Below are positions 30,658-40,728 of a stretch of DNA of 64,000 nucleotides, one piece after another. The notes under the pieces are model-generated. The model did not search any database, was not told the DNA's origin, and was given only the letters and a program-made list of their open reading frames with translations. A program made the translations under genes and the position numbers. The stretch is taken from assembly GCF_055900595.2 (NCBI RefSeq), contig NZ_CM148325.1. One strand, 5' to 3'. The stretch's first letter is position 1, and the number at the start of each line of letters is the position of its first letter.

Positions 30658-30794
30658 ACGTCCTCCTTTTCCTGCGGTAGTGGTAACACCCCTGTTGGTG
30701 TTCTTTCACGCCGGAGACACCATCGATTCCAGTCAGGTTGATTTGGTCGGAAGCGGTTATCTTCTTTGCATTCACCGCACCGATAACATCGCAT
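30624..30794 (-). CDS. ninD: NinD
   Basis: From internal ATG reads [33 protein letters not shown]...DEVSPT. Confidence 0.65.
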
Positions 30795-31666
30795 CATGCA
30801 GCTTCCCTCCCGAAGTCGAAATAAAGCTGCCCTCCAAATATTTCGCATGACTCAGAACAAGAGCCGGTATCGAATCTTTTAGCTCGTACCATGTCCTGAT
30901 ACAGGGCTTGATAATCATTTTCTGAATACATTTTCGCGATACCATCCAGCGACATTCTTCCTCGGTACATAATCTCCTTTGGTGTTTCCCGATGTCCGTC
31001 ACGCACATGCGATCCCGTGATGACCTCATTAAAAACACGCTGCAATCCCTCCTCATCTTTACAGGCAAGTCCGATTTTTTGCGTTGATTTTTTAATGCAG
31101 AATATGCAGTTACCGAGATGTTCCGGTATTTGCAAATCGAATGGTTGTTGCTTCCACCATGCGAGGATATCTTCCTTCTCAAAGTCTGACAGTTCAGCAA
31201 GATATCTGATTCCAGGCTTTGGCTTTAGCCGCTTCGGTTCATCAGCTCTGATGCCAATCCACGTGGTGTAATTCCCTCGCCCGAAATGGTCATCACAGTA
31301 TTTGGTGAAGGGAACGAGTTTTAATCTGTCAGTGCAGAACGCGCCGCCGACGTATGGAGTGCCATATTTCTTTACCATATCGATAAATGGCTTCAGAACA
31401 GGCATTTTCGTCTGAATATCCTTTGGTTCCCATACCGTATAACCATTTGACTGTCCAAGCTCTGGGTTGATATCAACCTGCAATACAGTGAGCGGTATAT
31501 CCCAGAACTTCACAACTTCGCGGATAAACCGATATGTCATCGGGTGTTCACAACCTGTATCCATGAAAACGTAATGCACGTCTTCACCTGCCTGTCGCTT
31601 TTGCTCCATTAGCCAGAGCAAATATGCTGACGTCCTGCCACCGGAGAAACTAACGACATTTATCAT
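30794..31666 (-). CDS. ninC: NinC (PAPS-reductase-like)
   Basis: From internal ATG reads [22 protein letters not shown], 290 aa; SGGRTS PP-loop. Confidence 0.8.
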
Positions 31667-32103
31667 GCAGCCCTGTCTCCCCATCTTGCTTTCCACTCCA
31701 GAGCCAGTCGCGCTTCGTCTGACCACTTAACGCCACGCTCTGTACCAAATGCCTGTATAAGCTCTAATAGCTCCGCAAATTCGCTTACACGCATCCTGCT
31801 GGTTGACTGGCCTATTACCACAAAGCCATTCCCGGCAAGGTTAGGAACAACGTCCTGCTGCTTTAATGCTGCTGTAAAAACGCACTTCCAGCTTTCTGCA
31901 TCCAGCCAGCGACCATGCCATTCAACCTGACGCGAGACGTCACCAAGGCAAGCCCAAAGTTTCCGATTTTGGTCTAAGCTGCGGTTACGTTCCTGAATGG
32001 TTACTACGATTGGTTTGGTTGGGTCTGGAAGGATTTGCTGTACTGCGTGAATAGCGTTTTGCTGATGTGCTGGAGATCGAATTTCAAAGGTCAGTTTTTT
32101 CAT
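31663..32103 (-). CDS. ninB: NinB (Orf) recombination mediator
   Basis: 146 aa, MKKLTFEIRSPAHQQNAIHAVQQILPDPTKPIVVTIQERNRSLDQNRKLWACL. Confidence 0.88.
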   Translation of the reverse strand: MKKLTFEIRSPAHQQNAIHAVQQILPDPTKPIVVTIQERNRSLDQNRKLWACLGDVSRQVEWHGRWLDAESWKCVFTAALKQQDVVPNLAGNGFVVIGQSTSRMRVSEFAELLELIQAFGTERGVKWSDEARLALEWKARWGDRAA

Positions 32104-32296
32104 GACTTCCCTCTCTAACAGATTTCAGGTTATTCCACTCCGTTACCGCACTGCGATAATTCGCGGCCGCCACAGCAGCGTGGTTAGCGCAGTAGATTTG
32201 GCACCCGTTCTCCATGTCGAATATTGTCGGTGATTTTCCGCATTTACATTTTTTGGCACGCGGTGCGTCTGAACACATTCCGTTAACGGTGTCCAT
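32084..32296 (-). CDS. Small Cys-rich hypothetical protein
   Basis: 70 aa with CKCGK...CQIYCANH; sits between the replication module and ninB. Confidence 0.4.
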   Translation of the reverse strand: MDTVNGMCSDAPRAKKCKCGKSPTIFDMENGCQIYCANHAAVAAANYRSAVTEWNNLKSVREGSHEKTDL

Positions 32297-32381
32297 TAGG
32301 ATCCCCCTAGTTCTTAATCCAATAAAAAAGGGCTACTGTGTAAATAGCCCCTGTTATTAGCCCAGTGATGTAGATGGTCAT

Positions 32382-34262
32382 TTAATACTCCGTCACGTTT
32401 TCCTGTCGCCACGCCTCGTCATATTCCGATTTCGGCATATTGGCGATGTAGCTATATGGCGATCCTGATTCAAGTTGCAGGAACTGGTGCGATTGCTCGT
32501 CAAGGAACAACGGGACACCACCTTCCCAACCTTCGCCGTTACGTTGTTTTTCAAGCATCAAAACAGATGCCGGAGATGCCAGTAGCTGTTCGTCCTTCTC
32601 TGACATCTTTTCACCACTCTGAACTCTCTGTAACGCTCTCTCGCGAGCCTTGTTACGCCAGATGATGAAAAGGTTGTCTGTCAGGTCTGTTATCGCTCCA
32701 GAGCCTTTTACGTCCATTTTCCCGGTTGGTTTTTCTTCGCTGTCTCCTTTTCGCGAGTGAGTAACGAGAATGACGTGGGAGTTTGTTTTGTTTTTGAAGT
32801 CGCAAATCGAGTCAACAAACGCCTTCTGCCCGTTATAGTCATCGTCGCCTATGCCACATTTCATCAGGCTGTCGATGATGAATAACTGGATCCCGTATCG
32901 GCGGCGAGCGTAGTCGAATATTTCGATCAGCCTGTCGGCTTTCGCCGTTCCGGTCAGGCCAAACACCCAGAGTCTTTCGTCATAAAATTTAAATGCAGAG
33001 TCAATTTCCAGCACTGGCGGCATCTTGCAGCACGTTGCCTGACGGGTAAGGCGCTTAAGGAGAATACCAGGCTTCAGCTCAAGTGACGCGATGCACGTCT
33101 TCACACCCTGACGCATTGCCTCAAGTGCCATATGCCCGACAACCTCCGTTTTTCCGTGACCGTTCACACCATTGACCAGCGTCAACTCGGCCTCACGGAA
33201 CTGGAATTTATCTGCCAGAGATTCCCACGGTGGATTAAACAGATACTGCTGCTTGCCGTAGAAAGCGTTGATAGTGTCCTGGTAAAACTCTCGCGCGCTG
33301 TAGAGTTCTTCAGGATCGAAGTAGGATGCCGTGCCAATGTACTGCCAGATTTCATCCTCGGTAACACCGTTCATCAGGCATTCGTTGATGTCTTTGTACG
33401 GCAGAGTAACAAGACGGCAACGATGTTCACCGAGTCGGCTTGCGATTTCCCTTGCGGCTTCACGACCAACATCATCAACGTCCATCGAGATGAATATTTC
33501 CTCAAACCTGTCGAGGTTGTGATACTCAAACTCAATCCACTGCTGCTTAGCGCCTTTCCCGCCACCAAACGGCACGGATAACGCCGAGATGCCGTATTGC
33601 GCATAGCTCATACAGTCAATTTCGCCTTCGCAAAGTACAACAGCCCTCACGCCAGCGTCCAGAGCCTGCCATCCGAACAGACAAGGTTCGCAATCACCTT
33701 CTGCCATAATGACTTTCTTCCCGTCCGGGCGCTCAGTGCTGATTCGCTTGACCTGCAACAACTCACCATCGCGTTTGTACGGAATCACCAGAGCATCCAG
33801 TTCCCGCTCTCCATTCCACACCTTGCCGCTGACAACCTCGTATCGCTTTACGATTTCTGGCGATATGCCACGCGATTGCAGGTACTCAAGATGGGATTCT
33901 GTTCTGGTAACGTAGCGGGCTATTTTCTTGCGATCAGGTCTGGAGAATTTCTTCTCACGTTTGGCATCGAAATGGTGATCGTCATCCTTGATACCGAGAA
34001 ATGCTTTCGCTTCCTGCATAGCCTGATGCAGGTTAATTCCACGACATGCCATCCACAAATCAAGCATGTCACCGCCGTCTCCCTCAGCGAAATCAGCCCA
34101 TTTTTTCTTGCCGCTAAGATTGACCTTAAGGCTGTTTCCCTTGTCACCGTTGACGTTACCGGCAACCCACTCATGCCCCTCTTTCTTGCCGTTTGGCAAC
34201 AGGTGCGGAGCCACCCTGTCAACCTGCGCCCAAAGCAGGTCGCTAAGTTCACTTGGCGTCAT
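32382..34262 (-). CDS. Replicative primase-helicase (TOPRIM primase fused to DnaB-like helicase)
   Basis: 626 aa; VVLCEGEIDCMSYAQ (TOPRIM acidic motif), GVNGHGKT Walker A, IIDSL Walker B; occupies the lambda P slot. Confidence 0.75.
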   Translation of the reverse strand: MTPSELSDLLWAQVDRVAPHLLPNGKKEGHEWVAGNVNGDKGNSLKVNLSGKKKWADFAEGDGGDMLDLWMACRGINLHQAMQEAKAFLGIKDDDHHFDAKREKKFSRPDRKKIARYVTRTESHLEYLQSRGISPEIVKRYEVVSGKVWNGERELDALVIPYKRDGELLQVKRISTERPDGKKVIMAEGDCEPCLFGWQALDAGVRAVVLCEGEIDCMSYAQYGISALSVPFGGGKGAKQQWIEFEYHNLDRFEEIFISMDVDDVGREAAREIASRLGEHRCRLVTLPYKDINECLMNGVTEDEIWQYIGTASYFDPEELYSAREFYQDTINAFYGKQQYLFNPPWESLADKFQFREAELTLVNGVNGHGKTEVVGHMALEAMRQGVKTCIASLELKPGILLKRLTRQATCCKMPPVLEIDSAFKFYDERLWVFGLTGTAKADRLIEIFDYARRRYGIQLFIIDSLMKCGIGDDDYNGQKAFVDSICDFKNKTNSHVILVTHSRKGDSEEKPTGKMDVKGSGAITDLTDNLFIIWRNKARERALQRVQSGEKMSEKDEQLLASPASVLMLEKQRNGEGWEGGVPLFLDEQSHQFLQLESGSPYSYIANMPKSEYDEAWRQENVTEY

Positions 34263-34369
34263 GATTCCCTCAGATTGAGATTTTTAAACCAGAAATCGAC
34301 AAATGAAATACTTAACCAGCCGTGGTTATAACCAGCGACCAGTAGCGATTTGATTTTTGATTTCATGGT

Positions 34370-35230
34370 TCACCTGTCGAAAAACACGTAGCCAGTTTTC
34401 GATACGGTGATTGCGGATGATGGTTTGGATTGTGGTTGAATGGTTTCTGGCTTTTCGTCGTTCCAGCGTTGACCGTTCAGGTAGCTCGATGGTAACAACC
34501 TGTCGAATCCGAACTGCTTACCATTCCTGCATGCGATGTCTTCTGCCAACATCGTGGCAAACTCGCTTGCCGTACCCCTGGTAGTTTTACGCCATTCCCT
34601 GAACTGTGTTCTGAATGCCGAAGCTGCGTTTTTCTTCCCGGCTTTCCGCATGCCTGCACACCAGAATATTTCCTCGAATGCCTTGTCGGTTTCTTCGTGA
34701 CGGTCAGGTGATTTTTCACACTCCGTCCGAACACTTTCGGACATAGTGTTTTTATTATTTCTTTTTTCTTTTGTAATAGTTTCTTTTGTGTGTCCCTGTT
34801 TTGGTGACAGCGCTGTCACCATTTTGGTGACACTTTTTGTCACCAATGCAGTGACATTATCACCAGAGTAGTGACACCCTTCGATTTGCCATTCCTCGAT
34901 GTTCTTGTTAGGCCCGATTTGCTGGCCTTCGCGAAGGATAACCTTCATCGCGATAAGCTCATTCTTGGCCTTGTTTACCTTCTGTCTTGGCAGCCTGGTA
35001 ATTTGAGCTAACTGACTATCAGAGATGCGATCCATCTTTTTACCGTAGCCGTATGTTTTACGGCATATGGCGTGGGCAACCTTGCTCTGATTTTTCGTTA
35101 AATCTGCGCCGATAAGCTCTTCATACAGGGCATTTGCAAGACGGGTATAACCATCTTCAACTTCTGCCACACGACGCTCCACAGGCCGTTGTGAAGGCCT
35201 TAAATGTGTTACGGTTGCAAGATTACTCAT
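34370..35230 (-). CDS. Replication initiator, lambda O-like N-terminal domain with divergent C-terminus
   Basis: [56 protein letters not shown] parallels the lambda O N-terminal domain; gene contains an iteron array. Confidence 0.75.
34793..34878. repeat. Putative replication origin iterons inside the O-like gene
   Basis: GGTGACA / TGTCACC motif alternating ~6 times (TTGGTGACAGCGCTGTCACCATTTTGGTGACACTTTTTGTCACC...) flanked by an AT-rich stretch at 34745-34790. Confidence 0.6.
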
Positions 35231-35403
35231 GACCTTTCTCCTTCTGCATCAGCTTCACTTTTTCCAACTCAGCCCGGAATCGACCAGGCTGCTTGAAGCT
35301 GGACAGGAAGCGATCACGTAGTATGTGTTTGTGAATTTTGTCCTGGTAAGGACTGAGTTGTTTTGTCATAATTACTCCTGTGGATTGATCCAGTCTTTCT
35401 ACA

Positions 35404-35682
35404 TCAGGCCTCGAAGAATTCGCCGTTCTTCGGGGCTTTTTCTTTTGTCAGCATTCTGGCTACTTTCTTAGCCAGTTCCGCCAACTCCTCGTCTTCAACA
35501 CCCCATTCAAGAACAGCCAGAAGCATTCCCATTTTTGGGATGAAGCTGTCTTTCCATCGTGAAATTTGCGATTCATTAATCCCTAACGCGTCGGCCACCT
35601 TTCGCTGACCACGTACAGCAATTCGATTTAGGATGTTGCTTGTAATTGCATTCGCTTTCTTGCGAGTACTTGTAAGTTGCAT
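35404..35682 (-). CDS. cII: cII-like transcriptional activator
   Basis: From internal [65 protein letters not shown], cII-family HTH pattern. Confidence 0.7.
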
Positions 35683-35761
35683 ATGTAAGTATTTCCTTAG
35701 ATAACAATTGATTGAATGTATGCAAATAAATGCATACACCATAGGTGTGGTTTAATTTGAT

Positions 35762-35776
35762 GCCCTTTTTCAGGGC
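35762..35776 (-). promoter_or_regulatory. nutR boxB hairpin
   Basis: Reverse strand GCCCTGAAAAAGGGC between cro and cII. Confidence 0.7.
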
Positions 35777-35801
35777 TGGGATGTGTAAGAGCGGGAATGT
35801 C

Positions 35802-37154
<1,353 letters not shown>

Positions 37155-37203
37155 TCCCCACCTCAATCTCGATAACCAAAAACAAACTATTTTTCATTTA
37201 AAA

Positions 37204-37271
37204 ACAATGGAGTTTGTTTTTCACGCCCCTTTTTACAATATTTCTTGTTTACAACATACAATCTTTCTTGT
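37204..37271. promoter_or_regulatory. Left operator oL (three 434-type sites) with pL
   Basis: ACAATGGAGTTTGT, ACAATATTTCTTGT, ACAATCTTTCTTGT upstream of N. Confidence 0.8.
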
Positions 37272-37331
37272 AATTTTAAGCCATCAGCAGGACGCACTGA
37301 CCACCATGAAGGTGAGGCTCTTAAAAATTAA

Positions 37332-37346
37332 GCCCTGAAGAAGGGC
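37332..37346 (+). promoter_or_regulatory. nutL boxB hairpin (boxA-like GCTCTTA just upstream)
   Basis: GCCCTGAAGAAGGGC preceded by GGCTCTTAAAAATTAA, as in lambda nutL. Confidence 0.8.
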
Positions 37347-37544
37347 AGCATTCAAAGCAGAAGGCTTTGGGATTGGATGAATGAGCAGGCTGATGCTCGA
37401 CCAATGTATAAACAGCGCTCATGGCAAGCAGTAACCAATCTGCGCCTCAAGACAGCGTCACTGGTAGTGCGGGCGCTCTAACCAGTAAGCCGGGGTTCAG
37501 CGCCGGCCATCCAATCACCAAAGCTAACTGACAGGAGAATCCAG

Positions 37545-39757: not shown

Positions 39758-40225
39758 ATGTCTCACTTGGACGGAATTATTAAAAGATTCGAGTCCAGCT
39801 ACAAAGTTAATGAAACAACAGGTTGCTGGGAGTCTACCTATTCAAAAAACAAAGGAGGATACACAAAATTTGTAGCCTTTGGCGTAACAATGCTTTCTCA
39901 TCGGGTTGCTTTTGAGCTTTATCACTCCCCCATTCCATCTGGGAAGATGGTTTGCCACAAATGCGATAACCCATGCTGCGTTAATCCTGAACATCTCTTT
40001 TTAGGTAGCGCGCAAGAAAACATGGACGACAAGATAGCAAAAGGAAGGCATCGTGGAGCCAAGAAAGGTCATGCTCATCATGGTGCAAAATTAACAGAGT
40101 GGCAGGTTATAGAAATTAGGAAAAGACTCTCTGAAAAAGAGAGTCAGTACAAGATAGCAAAAGACATGGGTGTATCTCAATCAATTATAAGCAACATAAA
40201 AACTGGCAAGAGGTGGAGCAAATGA
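39758..40225 (+). CDS. HNH endonuclease
   Basis: 155 aa; [11 protein letters not shown]...[29 protein letters not shown]/zinc motif; inserted between annealing protein and SSB. Confidence 0.75.
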
Positions 40226-40728
40226 GTTCTCGCGGGATAAATAAGGTGATTATTCTTGGTCGGGTAGGACAAGACCCGGAAGTTCGATACTCACCATCAG
40301 GAACAGCGTTCGCTAACCTGACAATAGCCACGTCAGAACAATGGCGAGATAAAAATACTGGCGAGCAAAAGGAATTGACTGAATGGCATCGTGTTGCTGT
40401 ATCCGGGAAACTGGCTGAGGTCGTGGGGCAGTATGTGAAAAAAGGTGATCAGATTTATTTCGAGGGAATGCTGAGAACCAGAAAGTGGAAAGACCAGTCA
40501 GGGCAAGACCGTTACACAACCGAGGTTCATGTCGGAATTAATGGTGTGATGCAAATGCTTGGCGGCATTGGCGACAGCAAACAACAAGCATCCAGCAGGC
40601 AATCACAGAAGCCACAGCAGCAATCATCACCAGCACAACACAACGAACCTCCGATGGATTTTGACGACGATATACCCTTTGCACCAGTAACTCTCCCCTT
40701 CCCTCGTCACGCTATTCACGCAATTTAA
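40222..40728 (+). CDS. ssb: Single-stranded DNA-binding protein
   Basis: [48 protein letters not shown]...; OB-fold SSB signature and acidic DFDDDIPF tail motif. Confidence 0.85.

Follow-up and report, generated by a model that had tools for sequence, protein, structure and literature searches.

The replication cassette and its genomic setting

The window, by which we mean the whole 64,000-nucleotide stretch of DNA that was analysed, carries an O-like replication initiator gene and the gene for a large primase-helicase, both of which were recovered exactly where the original prediction had placed them (34370-35230 and 32382-34262). Together with a small reading frame between the two genes, the elements of an origin and the flanking signals, the region comprises the following features:

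36045..36073, minus strand: pR-like promoter, TTGACA-17-GAAAAT, between cI and cro (promoter scan, 10/12 matches)
34370..35230, minus strand: O-like replication initiator gene, 286 aa (Phage_rep_O; comparison with lambda O and with ES18 and phi24B)
34791..34876, minus strand: four 19-bp dyad iterons, TGTCAC(C/T)-N5-GGTGA(C/T)A (repeat families D1/D3 and pattern search)
34750..34790, minus strand: AT-rich tract, A-rich on the sense strand, putative unwinding site (near-identity to lambda)
34718..34749, minus strand: imperfect inverted repeat I7, with 14-nt arms that are 86% complementary (also listed as a hairpin)
34259..34366, minus strand: 35-aa open reading frame (ORF), MKSKIKSLLVAGYNHGWLSISFVDFWFKNLNLRES, homologue of ES18 gp60 (phrog_21848, 4e-26)
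32382..34262, minus strand: predicted bifunctional primase-helicase of the T7 gp4/Twinkle type, 626 aa (Pfam, PHROG, TIGR, PDB and AF2/Foldseek)
32318..32352, minus strand: terminator-like hairpin with a T-run, tail TTTTTATT (consensus scan; 10-bp stem, 4 GC pairs)

The cassette is flanked by cII/DUF2740 on one side and by NinB on the other, and its gene order is that of ES18 genes 59-60-61. Judged by gene content and sequence, the module belongs to a P22-like lambdoid prophage of E. coli and is a replication cassette of the ES18 type. The same order and the same proteins are found in epsilon34 (50-51-52), g341c, mEp043, Sf101, SEN22 and the Stx2 phages phi24B and Min27. Identity to ES18 is 96.7% for the initiator C-terminal domain (gp59), 97% for the 35-aa ORF (gp60) and 93.9% for the primase-helicase, and the latter is 99.7% identical to its counterparts in mEp043 and Sf101. 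At the DNA level, phages mEp043 and Sf101 match the entire region at 98.8% identity and strain EC332 matches it at 100%. Of 5426 complete E. coli genomes, 296 (~5%) contain the cassette.

The novelty that the original prediction implied for this module is not borne out, as the cassette is already catalogued in ES18 (gp59-61), epsilon34, mEp043, Sf101 and phi24B. It is a known and ordinary arrangement, recognised in the first four of these phages since 2005. The module has been recognised in epsilon34 and ES18 (PMC2629481) and in the Anderson typing phages (PMC10307801), and the GenBank annotation of ES18, on which our ES18 comparison is based, describes gp61 as "primase/helicase, similar to T7 gene 4". 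As a discovery the cassette therefore carries little weight, being catalogued, common and annotated as primase/helicase in several phage records. The Eru1-3 types described for the replication of Stx phages (PMC8044961) have an SF2 helicase with Toprim, an O-like protein with a DnaB helicase, and a DnaB helicase; on comparison, none of them equals the present cassette.

The pR-like promoter would drive a cro-cII-DUF2740-O-orf35-primase/helicase operon and, with it, transcription across the origin. The terminator-like hairpin, which is a consensus match only, follows the stop codon of the primase-helicase gene at a distance of 30 nt, at the position of lambda tR2. An oop-like antisense element is found upstream, as in lambda, and an Rfam search of 31500-37500 returned no family. 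Within the operon, the 35-aa ORF overlaps the start of the primase-helicase gene through an ATGA sequence, which suggests translational coupling. Nucleotide differences in this small ORF among close relatives are few and all synonymous, phi24B keeps it at 71% identity, and phage Fraca has a related reading frame between its initiator and a primase-helicase that is 61% identical; nothing in Pfam matched the ORF at E<=10. No homologue of lambda P or Ren was found anywhere in the window, in agreement with the claim that the primase-helicase stands in place of P, and the operon contains no P-, DnaC- or DnaT-like loader.

A lambda-type origin inside a bimodular initiator gene

The initiator consists of an origin-binding N-terminal domain (about aa 1-156) and an ES18-type C-terminal domain (aa 157-286). 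Matches to Pfam Phage_rep_O (PF04492; residues 20-114, E 1.2e-37) and TIGR01610 (E 1.5e-30), together with 49% identity to lambda O over residues 1-157 (about aa 1-155), confirm that the N-terminus is lambda-O-like, as had been proposed. The proposed divergence of the C-terminus from lambda is equally evident, as the alignment to lambda O contains no similarity past residue 157, that is, over the C-terminal 130 aa. This part is 97.5% identical to phi24B O, as well as closely similar to ES18 gp59. Nothing in Pfam matched the C-terminal domain at E<=10, and a PDB sequence search with the domain as query gave nothing meaningful. Its AF2 model (pLDDT 76) consists of a ~75-residue helical core and a disordered tail, for which Foldseek against the PDB gave no match better than E 4.

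The putative origin lies inside this gene. Mapping by motif search, with up to two mismatches permitted, placed four sites of the pattern TGTCACYN5GGTGAYA in a cluster within 34791-34876 and one site elsewhere, compared with ~0.95 expected per window; none of 100 shuffled sequences matched the observed count. The exact heptamer GGTGACA occurs in four copies in 34803-34844 and 15 times across the whole window, where 6.4 are expected per 64 kb. Read in gene sense, the iterons occupy 34876-34858, 34856-34838, 34832-34814 and 34809-34791, so that their start-to-start spacing of 20, 24 and 23 bp is that of lambda, and in the alignment they stand in register with lambda iterons 1-4 (lambda 39034/39054/39078/39101). 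The repeats first reported are thus real, but the register assigned to them, GGTGACA..TGTCACC, corresponds to the junction of adjacent iterons, whereas alignment to lambda ori gives TGTCAC..GGTGACA. Their sequence does differ from lambda as claimed, with TGTCAC..GTGACA here and TCCCTC..GAGGGA in lambda.

The adjoining AT-rich tract, CACAAAAGAaACTATTACAAAAGAAAAAAG, is nearly identical to that of lambda. Directly to its right lies the I7 inverted repeat, at the position of the palindrome that flanks lambda ori; it moves together with the C-terminal module and may have a role in the origin. At the level of sequence, then, the initiator is bimodular, with an O-type N-terminal domain paired with its own iterons and a separate C-terminal domain, and the origin inside its gene has the lambda-ori architecture of four dyad iterons, an A/T-rich tract and a palindrome. 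To call the module "non-lambda" was consequently an overstatement with respect to origin architecture. The likeness to lambda extends to the O-type N-terminal domain, the location of ori within the gene, the four ~19-bp dyads and the operon position after cro-cII; the differences are an unrelated C-terminal domain, the missing P and Ren, and a phage helicase-primase that would replace recruited host DnaB and DnaG.

Pairwise identity profiles between relatives switch at nucleotides ~475-485 of the O gene, which correspond to window positions ~34746-34756. On these profiles, the mosaic breakpoint is the end of the AT-rich tract, and it separates an N-terminal/iteron module from a C-terminal/helicase module. 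One and the same set of C-terminal domain, 35-aa ORF and primase-helicase is combined with three distinct N-terminal/iteron types. The TGTCAC..GTGACA type is common to the window, mEp043, Sf101, SEN22, 720R6 and PhiR12, while ES18 and epsilon34 differ in having a lambda-type N-terminal domain with lambda iterons, and phi24B differs in having an HTH_36-type N-terminus with its own GGGCAGCTCCTGCCCC iterons and a helicase that contains an intein. In 78 of 80 IMG/VR loci, and likewise in ES18 and phi24B, the primase-helicase is directly preceded by the same C-terminal domain (93-100% identical) and the 35-aa ORF; of the two exceptions, one has no upstream DNA, and in the other no more than the final 16 codons of that ORF are present. 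Across these loci and phages the N-terminus is of the window type, of the lambda type (ES18) or unlike either (phi24B), and P is absent from all of them. Phage PhiR12_1 combines the window-type N-terminus and iterons (99.8% identical DNA) with a C-terminus of the lambda type and with P and Ren. The cassette is a natural example of domain-level mosaicism in which the crossover coincides exactly with the origin's conserved AT-rich linker, and origin specificity (N-terminal domain and iterons) and the choice of machinery (C-terminal domain and its partner) therefore assort independently.

Among close relatives, C-terminal domain and primase-helicase are strictly linked, and the linkage extends to four lineages at ~60% identity. 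In Fraca, CharmingMan, LMessi and ValSw3-3, a ~60%-identical primase-helicase adjoins an initiator whose C-terminal domain is 38-60% identical to that of the window. This linkage suggests that the C-terminal domain contacts the helicase. The C-terminal core also exists as free-standing proteins of ~115 aa that have no primase-helicase next to them, and the core of Vibrio phage D65 precedes a 173-aa protein; conversely, one 62%-identical primase-helicase follows an initiator with a different C-terminus. The idea that the core is a dedicated primase-helicase adaptor was dropped, as the free-standing homologues and Vibrio phage D65 break the linkage.

Architecture of the primase-helicase

Four parts can be distinguished in the 626-aa protein: a zinc-ribbon-like domain (aa ~26-90) that lacks zinc ligands, an RNA-polymerase/TOPRIM domain whose TOPRIM part spans aa 209-296, the SF4 helicase at aa ~355-594, and a short tail of acidic/aromatic character. 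Pfam annotation supports the original assignment, in which a TOPRIM primase and an SF4 helicase are fused, with Toprim_2 at 209-296 (3e-12) and AAA_25 at 357-507 (2e-6), and PHROG 239, "DNA primase/helicase", matches the protein at 1.5e-171. Its description as DnaB-like needs correction, as Pfam gave no match on the protein to PF00772, the DnaB N-terminal domain, and DnaB_C scored 23.9 bits, under the Pfam cut-off of 27 bits. The best solved relatives by sequence are T7 gp4 (2.7e-23) and Twinkle. In Foldseek, the AF2 model (pLDDT 94) aligns with T7 gp4 5ikn (5ikn_J; E 6e-27, 502 columns, TMt 0.73) and with Aquifex DnaG 2au3 (E 1.6e-13), while DnaB structures match in the RecA-like core only (E ~1e-13). 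By domain content and predicted fold, the protein is a T7 gp4-type SF4 enzyme and not a member of the DnaB family in the strict sense.

Conservation was assessed in 94 family representatives of 35-60% identity. The helicase residues K371, E395, D464 and H502 (Walker A, catalytic Glu, Walker B and sensor His), aligned to T7, are invariant in all 94, and the TOPRIM residues E212, D261, D263 and D291, which align with T7 E157, D207, D209 and D237, are kept in 92-93. Where T7 has its arginine finger, R522, the window protein has Lys519; 60 of the representatives have K at this position and 26 have R, so that here the residue is still basic but is not Arg. The protein therefore has the three-part architecture and the catalytic residues of T7 gene 4, its best match by sequence and by fold, but it differs in its low overall identity (only ~21-25%), in the Lys at the R522 finger and in the absence of a Cys4 zinc site. 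All four Cys/His ligands of the zinc ribbon are missing and no CxxC pair is present; when the sequence is aligned by hand with the zinc motif of DnaG, G35 and D57 occupy zinc-ligand positions in 90-91 of the 94 representatives. AF2 predicts a five-strand ribbon-like fold at aa 26-64 and TIGR01391 dnaG matches aa 26-143, while nothing in Pfam matched the first 190 aa at E<=10. In T7 gp4, the zinc domain is required for template-directed priming. Because the zinc-binding-like domain of the window protein is without all four ligands, its primase activity cannot be taken for granted.

A relevant precedent is metazoan Twinkle, which has lost the zinc ligands of its N-terminal zinc-finger-like region and, along with them, its TOPRIM metal ligands and primase activity. 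Twinkle shares the gp4-like architecture of the window protein, matches it significantly in sequence and fold, and is among its closest solved relatives. Given also that zinc ligands are missing family-wide, the protein might be a helicase only, with a silent or structural primase half and with host DnaG priming as for the P22 gene 12 helicase. We consider this unlikely. In contrast to metazoan Twinkle, the TOPRIM acidic residues are intact, and their retention across diverged relatives, together with the strong conservation of the N-terminal domain, argues for selection on the primase half. Furthermore, DnaG docks on the DnaB-type N-terminal domain, of which Pfam found no match here. P22 gp12 does work with DnaG, according to Wickner 1984 as cited in PMC8022706. 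The P22 gene 18/12 system resembles the present module in having a phage-encoded replicative helicase for a P-type loader and an iteron origin inside the initiator gene (PMC8022706), but gp12 is of DnaB type, has no primase domain and uses host DnaG, whereas the enzyme here is of gp4 type with a TOPRIM primase.

It is far less probable still that host DnaB remains required, with the gp4-like protein serving as a primase or accessory translocase while some other phage or host factor loads DnaB. The change of the Arg finger to Lys, the sub-threshold DnaB_C score, and a 35-aa ORF and initiator C-terminal domain without assigned function could all be accommodated by such a scheme. However, the remaining SF4 catalytic motifs are all invariant, the fold matches T7 gp4 across ~500 residues, the operon is devoid of P-, DnaC- and DnaT-like loaders, and the alternation of Lys and Arg at position 519 is what would be expected of a functional basic "finger". 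That the prophage is decaying and the module an inactive leftover, as the chromosomal location might suggest, deserves hardly any credence, given that every reading frame is intact, that the region is near-identical to the sequenced phages mEp043 and Sf101 and fully identical in EC332, and that the 35-aa ORF differs among close relatives by synonymous changes only.

Proposed mechanism and probable host independence

The reading that we favour, and in which we have good confidence, is that an ES18-type cassette uses the phage's own primase-helicase at a lambda-type origin. In this mechanism, transcription from pR would pass through the operon and the origin, and initiator N-terminal domains would bind the four TGTCAC..GTGACA iterons as dimers to form an O-some, the strain of which would open the adjacent AT-rich tract. 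The initiator C-terminal domain, with its helical core and conserved tail, would deliver the hexameric primase-helicase directly onto the unwound strand. Direct delivery would substitute for the O-P-DnaB hand-off of lambda, so that P, DnaC and the DnaK/DnaJ/GrpE remodelling that releases P would not be needed. The helicase would unwind 5'->3', the TOPRIM domain would lay primers, and host Pol III holoenzyme would extend them. In two further respects the window protein would then differ from T7 gene 4, working with host Pol III and not with a phage polymerase, and being recruited at an iteron origin and not at the transcription-primed T7 origin.

Since a primase-helicase of the phage's own would be delivered for both unwinding and priming, host DnaB is most likely dispensable and DnaG probably so, as judged from domain content. 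The literature that we searched contained no experimental test of DnaB or DnaG independence for this module. The further suggestion in the original prediction, that host-dependent defences could thereby be bypassed, found no support in the analysis. As a precedent for independence, the dnaB-GrpD55 block, which stops phages with lambda-type replication, does not affect a lambda hybrid that carries P22 genes 18/12 and hence a helicase of its own (PMC3349717).

A more ambitious form of this proposal, which we put forward only tentatively, is that the enterobacterial ES18-type cassette represents a third way of helicase delivery at a lambda-type origin. Here the C-terminal domain, and perhaps the 35-aa peptide, might place the zinc-less primase-helicase directly, with neither a loader nor DnaK/DnaJ/GrpE, and the enzyme might prime for and couple to host Pol III. 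A TOPRIM primase active without a zinc site would, if this is true, be unusual. A capacity to prime without a zinc site, cooperation with Pol III and possible freedom from DnaB, DnaC, DnaG and the DnaK chaperones would matter equally for Stx2 phages with this helicase, of which phi24B is an example.

Gene order and distribution of the replication cassette

The region falls within the early-right operon of a lambdoid prophage of the P22-like kind and is read on the minus strand, with the following gene order.

36121-36753 (+): cI
between cI and cII: cro
next after cro: cII (PF05269)
35223-35369: DUF2740 gene, following cII and preceding the initiator
34370-35230 (-): initiator, 286 aa
34259-34366 (-): 35-aa ORF between the initiator and the primase-helicase
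32382-34262 (-): 626-aa protein (primase-helicase)
after the 626-aa protein gene: terminator-like hairpin
beyond the hairpin: 70-aa ORF, then NinB

The E. coli EC332 chromosome carries 2849 bp of this region at 100% identity, with the gene pair named 'replication protein' and 'toprim domain-containing protein' in RefSeq. The cassette is already known. Megablast matches the whole region to mEp043 (98.8% identity), Sf101 (98.6%) and SEN22 (91%), while the right-hand 83-85%, comprising the primase-helicase and the initiator C-terminus, is 88-98% identical in ES18, epsilon34, g341c, Oslo and the Stx2 phages phi24B, Min27 and F403. The ES18 GenBank record describes gp61 as a 'putative primase/helicase; similar to phage T7 gene 4' and gp59 as resembling lambda gpO and having an origin 'similar to lambda ori', the two being separated by the 35-aa gp60. 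The cassette has been treated as one lambdoid replication module type in the epsilon34 paper (PMC2629481) and is listed among such types in the Anderson typing-phage paper (PMC10307801). Of 5426 complete E. coli genomes, 296 carry the module; clustered at 50%, the protein family has 8368 representatives.

Several neighboring elements were also observed. The Cys-rich 70-aa ORF (32084-32296, -) belongs to phrog_6308, of unknown function, overlaps the ninB start and is unannotated in RefSeq; a PAPS-reductase-domain gene (PF01507, 7e-9) lies within the nin region at 30794-31726 (-). In host SSB, the partner-binding element is the free C-terminal tip; in the prophage-encoded SSB (40222-40728, +; PF00436, 1.7e-36), the acidic tip DFDDDIPF is not C-terminal and is followed by 15 residues. 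Opposite the cII/DUF2740 junction is an oop-like antisense element (~35367-35448, +). It has a CATAAT box (35367-35372), a 5' region that matches lambda oop and, at 35406-35438, a strong terminator hairpin with a T-run. Lambda oop is ~13 nt longer, and an Rfam search of 31500-37500, which includes the element, matched no family.

The primase-helicase and host dependence

The original prediction of a TOPRIM primase fused to a DnaB-like helicase stands with respect to Toprim_2 (residues 209-296), AAA_25 and PHROG 239 'DNA primase/helicase' (1.5e-171), but DnaB_C scores under the Pfam cut-off, and the helicase is of the T7 gp4 type rather than of the DnaB family in the strict sense. The nearest solved proteins by sequence are T7 gp4 (2.7e-23) and Twinkle, and residues 26-143 match TIGR01391 (dnaG). 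The AlphaFold model, computed with 94 diverse relatives (pLDDT 94), has T7 gp4 as its best superposition (E 6e-27, 502 columns, TMt 0.73), followed by Twinkle and DnaB, and also matches the zinc-binding and RNA-polymerase domains of Aquifex DnaG (E 1.6e-13). Alignment with T7 gp4 shows that the TOPRIM residues (Glu E212, the DxD pair D261/D263, and D291) and helicase residues (Walker A K371, catalytic E395, Walker B D464 and sensor H502) are kept, as they are in 92-94 of 94 representatives at 35-60% identity. Two features deviate: the T7 arginine finger position is Lys519 (K in 60/94, R in 26/94), and the N-terminal ribbon-like domain (strands at 26-64) is without zinc ligands, with G35 and D57 at ligand positions in about 90 of the 94 sequences. 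Given the fold and motif evidence and these two deviations, we consider the predicted helicase assignment solid and the putative primase well supported on its catalytic side, with a real caveat on the template-recognition side.

The tail of T7 gp4 (...ESTDWSNDTDF) binds T7 DNA polymerase. Residues 606-626 of the primase-helicase (32382-32444) form a low-confidence acidic tail, ...EYDEAWRQENVTEY, with a terminal aromatic residue; it is loosely alignable with the gp4 tail and conserved among enterobacterial relatives only.

Replacement of P by the 626-aa protein, as originally proposed, holds: genes for P, Ren, a DnaC-like or a DnaB-type protein are absent from the locus, with P and Ren searched across the window. 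DnaG docks on the DnaB N-terminal domain, and the gp4-like protein is without this domain. The dnaB-GrpD55 block, which halts rep-lambda phages, does not stop a lambda hybrid equipped with the P22 helicase cassette (PMC3349717). By this analogy, and with no loader or DnaB-type gene present, independence from host DnaB is likely; independence from host DnaG is probable, conditional on the zinc-less primase being active. A literature search for experiments on the module's DnaB or DnaG independence found none. The functional claims are plausible; the proposed role in defense evasion is unsupported.

Origin architecture and the mosaic initiator

Four dyad repeats of 19 bp each lie at 34791-34876, reading in gene sense TGTCACTACTCTGGTGATA, TGTCACTGCATTGGTGACA, TGTCACCAAAATGGTGACA and TGTCACCAAAACAGGGACA. 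A degenerate iteron pattern finds these four sites and one elsewhere in 64 kb, against 0.95 expected. The motif in the original prediction was correct, but its pairing, GGTGACA...TGTCACC, straddles the junction between neighboring iterons; aligned to lambda, the unit reads TGTCAC...GGTGACA. The repeats start 20, 24 and 23 bp apart, the same spacing as for the annotated lambda iterons (starts 39034, 39054, 39078 and 39101), and direct alignment places the two sets in register. The AT tract that follows, CACAAAAGA(A/C)ACTATTACAAAAGAAAAAAG, is near-identical in lambda, and an imperfect palindrome comes next (34718-34749), where lambda also has one. This shared register, spacing, AT tract and palindrome indicate a predicted origin with lambda's architecture and a different recognition sequence.

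The fourth iteron (34791-34809) is a hybrid, its left arm TGTCACC being of window type and its right arm CAGGGACA similar to lambda iteron 4, CAGGGGGACA; it adjoins the lambda-identical AT tract, near the mosaic breakpoint. Exact GGTGACA half-sites also occur in the 5' part of the primase-helicase gene (34067-34073 and 34142-34148, -), in the same orientation and 75 bp apart; they are single, form no dyad and may be due to chance.

Initiator residues 20-114 match Phage_rep_O (1.2e-37) and TIGR01610, and residues 1-157 are 49% identical to lambda O, with no significant BLASTP similarity to lambda O thereafter, bearing out both the O-like N-terminus and the divergent C-terminus first proposed. 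Overall, the analysis confirms the original observation and bears out its structural interpretation as correct. Pfam and PDB searches gave no relative for the last 123 residues, which match only PHROG families for replication initiation or primosomal proteins. In their AlphaFold model (pLDDT 76), a disordered tail comes after a small helical core, and a Foldseek search of the PDB with this model gave no match.

In ES18, the window's C-terminus is preceded by an N-terminus and iterons of lambda type; PhiR12_1 joins the window N-terminus and iterons (DNA 99.8% identical) to a C-terminus 100% identical to lambda's, with P and Ren next. Identity profiles place the crossover at O-gene nt ~475-485 (~34746-34756), the end of the shared AT-rich tract. 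Together, the crossover and mosaics argue that the module recognizing the origin and the one choosing the machinery are separate and can be exchanged. The lambda O C-terminus binds P. The modular split agrees with the known division of lambda O, whose N-terminus binds ori (PMC2629481).

Linkage of the C-terminal domain and putative selfish insertions

Of 80 IMG/VR loci whose primase-helicase shares at least 99% identity with that of the window, 78 carry directly upstream both the 35-aa ORF and an initiator with the same C-terminal domain (93-100% identity); of the other two, one is without upstream DNA and one holds just the last 16 codons of the ORF. None of the 80 has a P gene, and their initiator N-terminal domains are either of window type or unlike both the window and lambda queries. 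In phi24B, the N-terminal type that BLAST did not recognize is an HTH_36 winged-helix domain; it has repeats of its own, GGGCAGCTCCTGCCCC, spaced at 24 and 21. Primase-helicases of ~60% identity in Fraca, CharmingMan, LMessi and ValSw3-3 lie beside initiators with this C-terminal domain at 38-60% identity, and one of 48% identity is likewise paired with a domain at 32%. There are exceptions to this linkage: one primase-helicase at 62% identity lies after an initiator whose C-terminus is different, free-standing core homologues have no primase-helicase neighbor, and in Vibrio phage D65 (L095:3129-4365) the core is followed by an unknown 173-aa protein and no primase-helicase. Recruitment of the primase-helicase by the initiator C-terminal domain is therefore kept as our best inference.

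The helical core is itself a shuffled module, also found as free-standing ~115-aa proteins, after a phi24B-like HTH N-terminus in D65, and after another N-terminus plus a long acidic linker in Fraca (L096:2380-3402).

The 35-aa ORF (phrog_21848, the ES18 gp60 homologue) goes unannotated by RefSeq in the identical E. coli region and is kept as an ORF in ES18 and phi24B; in Fraca, a related frame (...LLVAGYNRGFL...) precedes the 61%-identical primase-helicase. The phi24B primase-helicase (L003:1501-4407; 968 aa, labeled 'P' in GenBank) contains an intein (Hom_end_hint and LAGLIDADG_3 domains) just past the Walker A region. In four related viral contigs (L056, L059, L074 and L081), the 35-aa ORF and the primase-helicase lie ~490 bp farther apart, and in the one inspected, L056 (3010-3504), the intervening DNA holds a 164-aa ORF that is, by motif, a putative HNH-type homing endonuclease. 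Together, the phi24B intein and the L056 ORF suggest that this replication gene attracts selfish elements.
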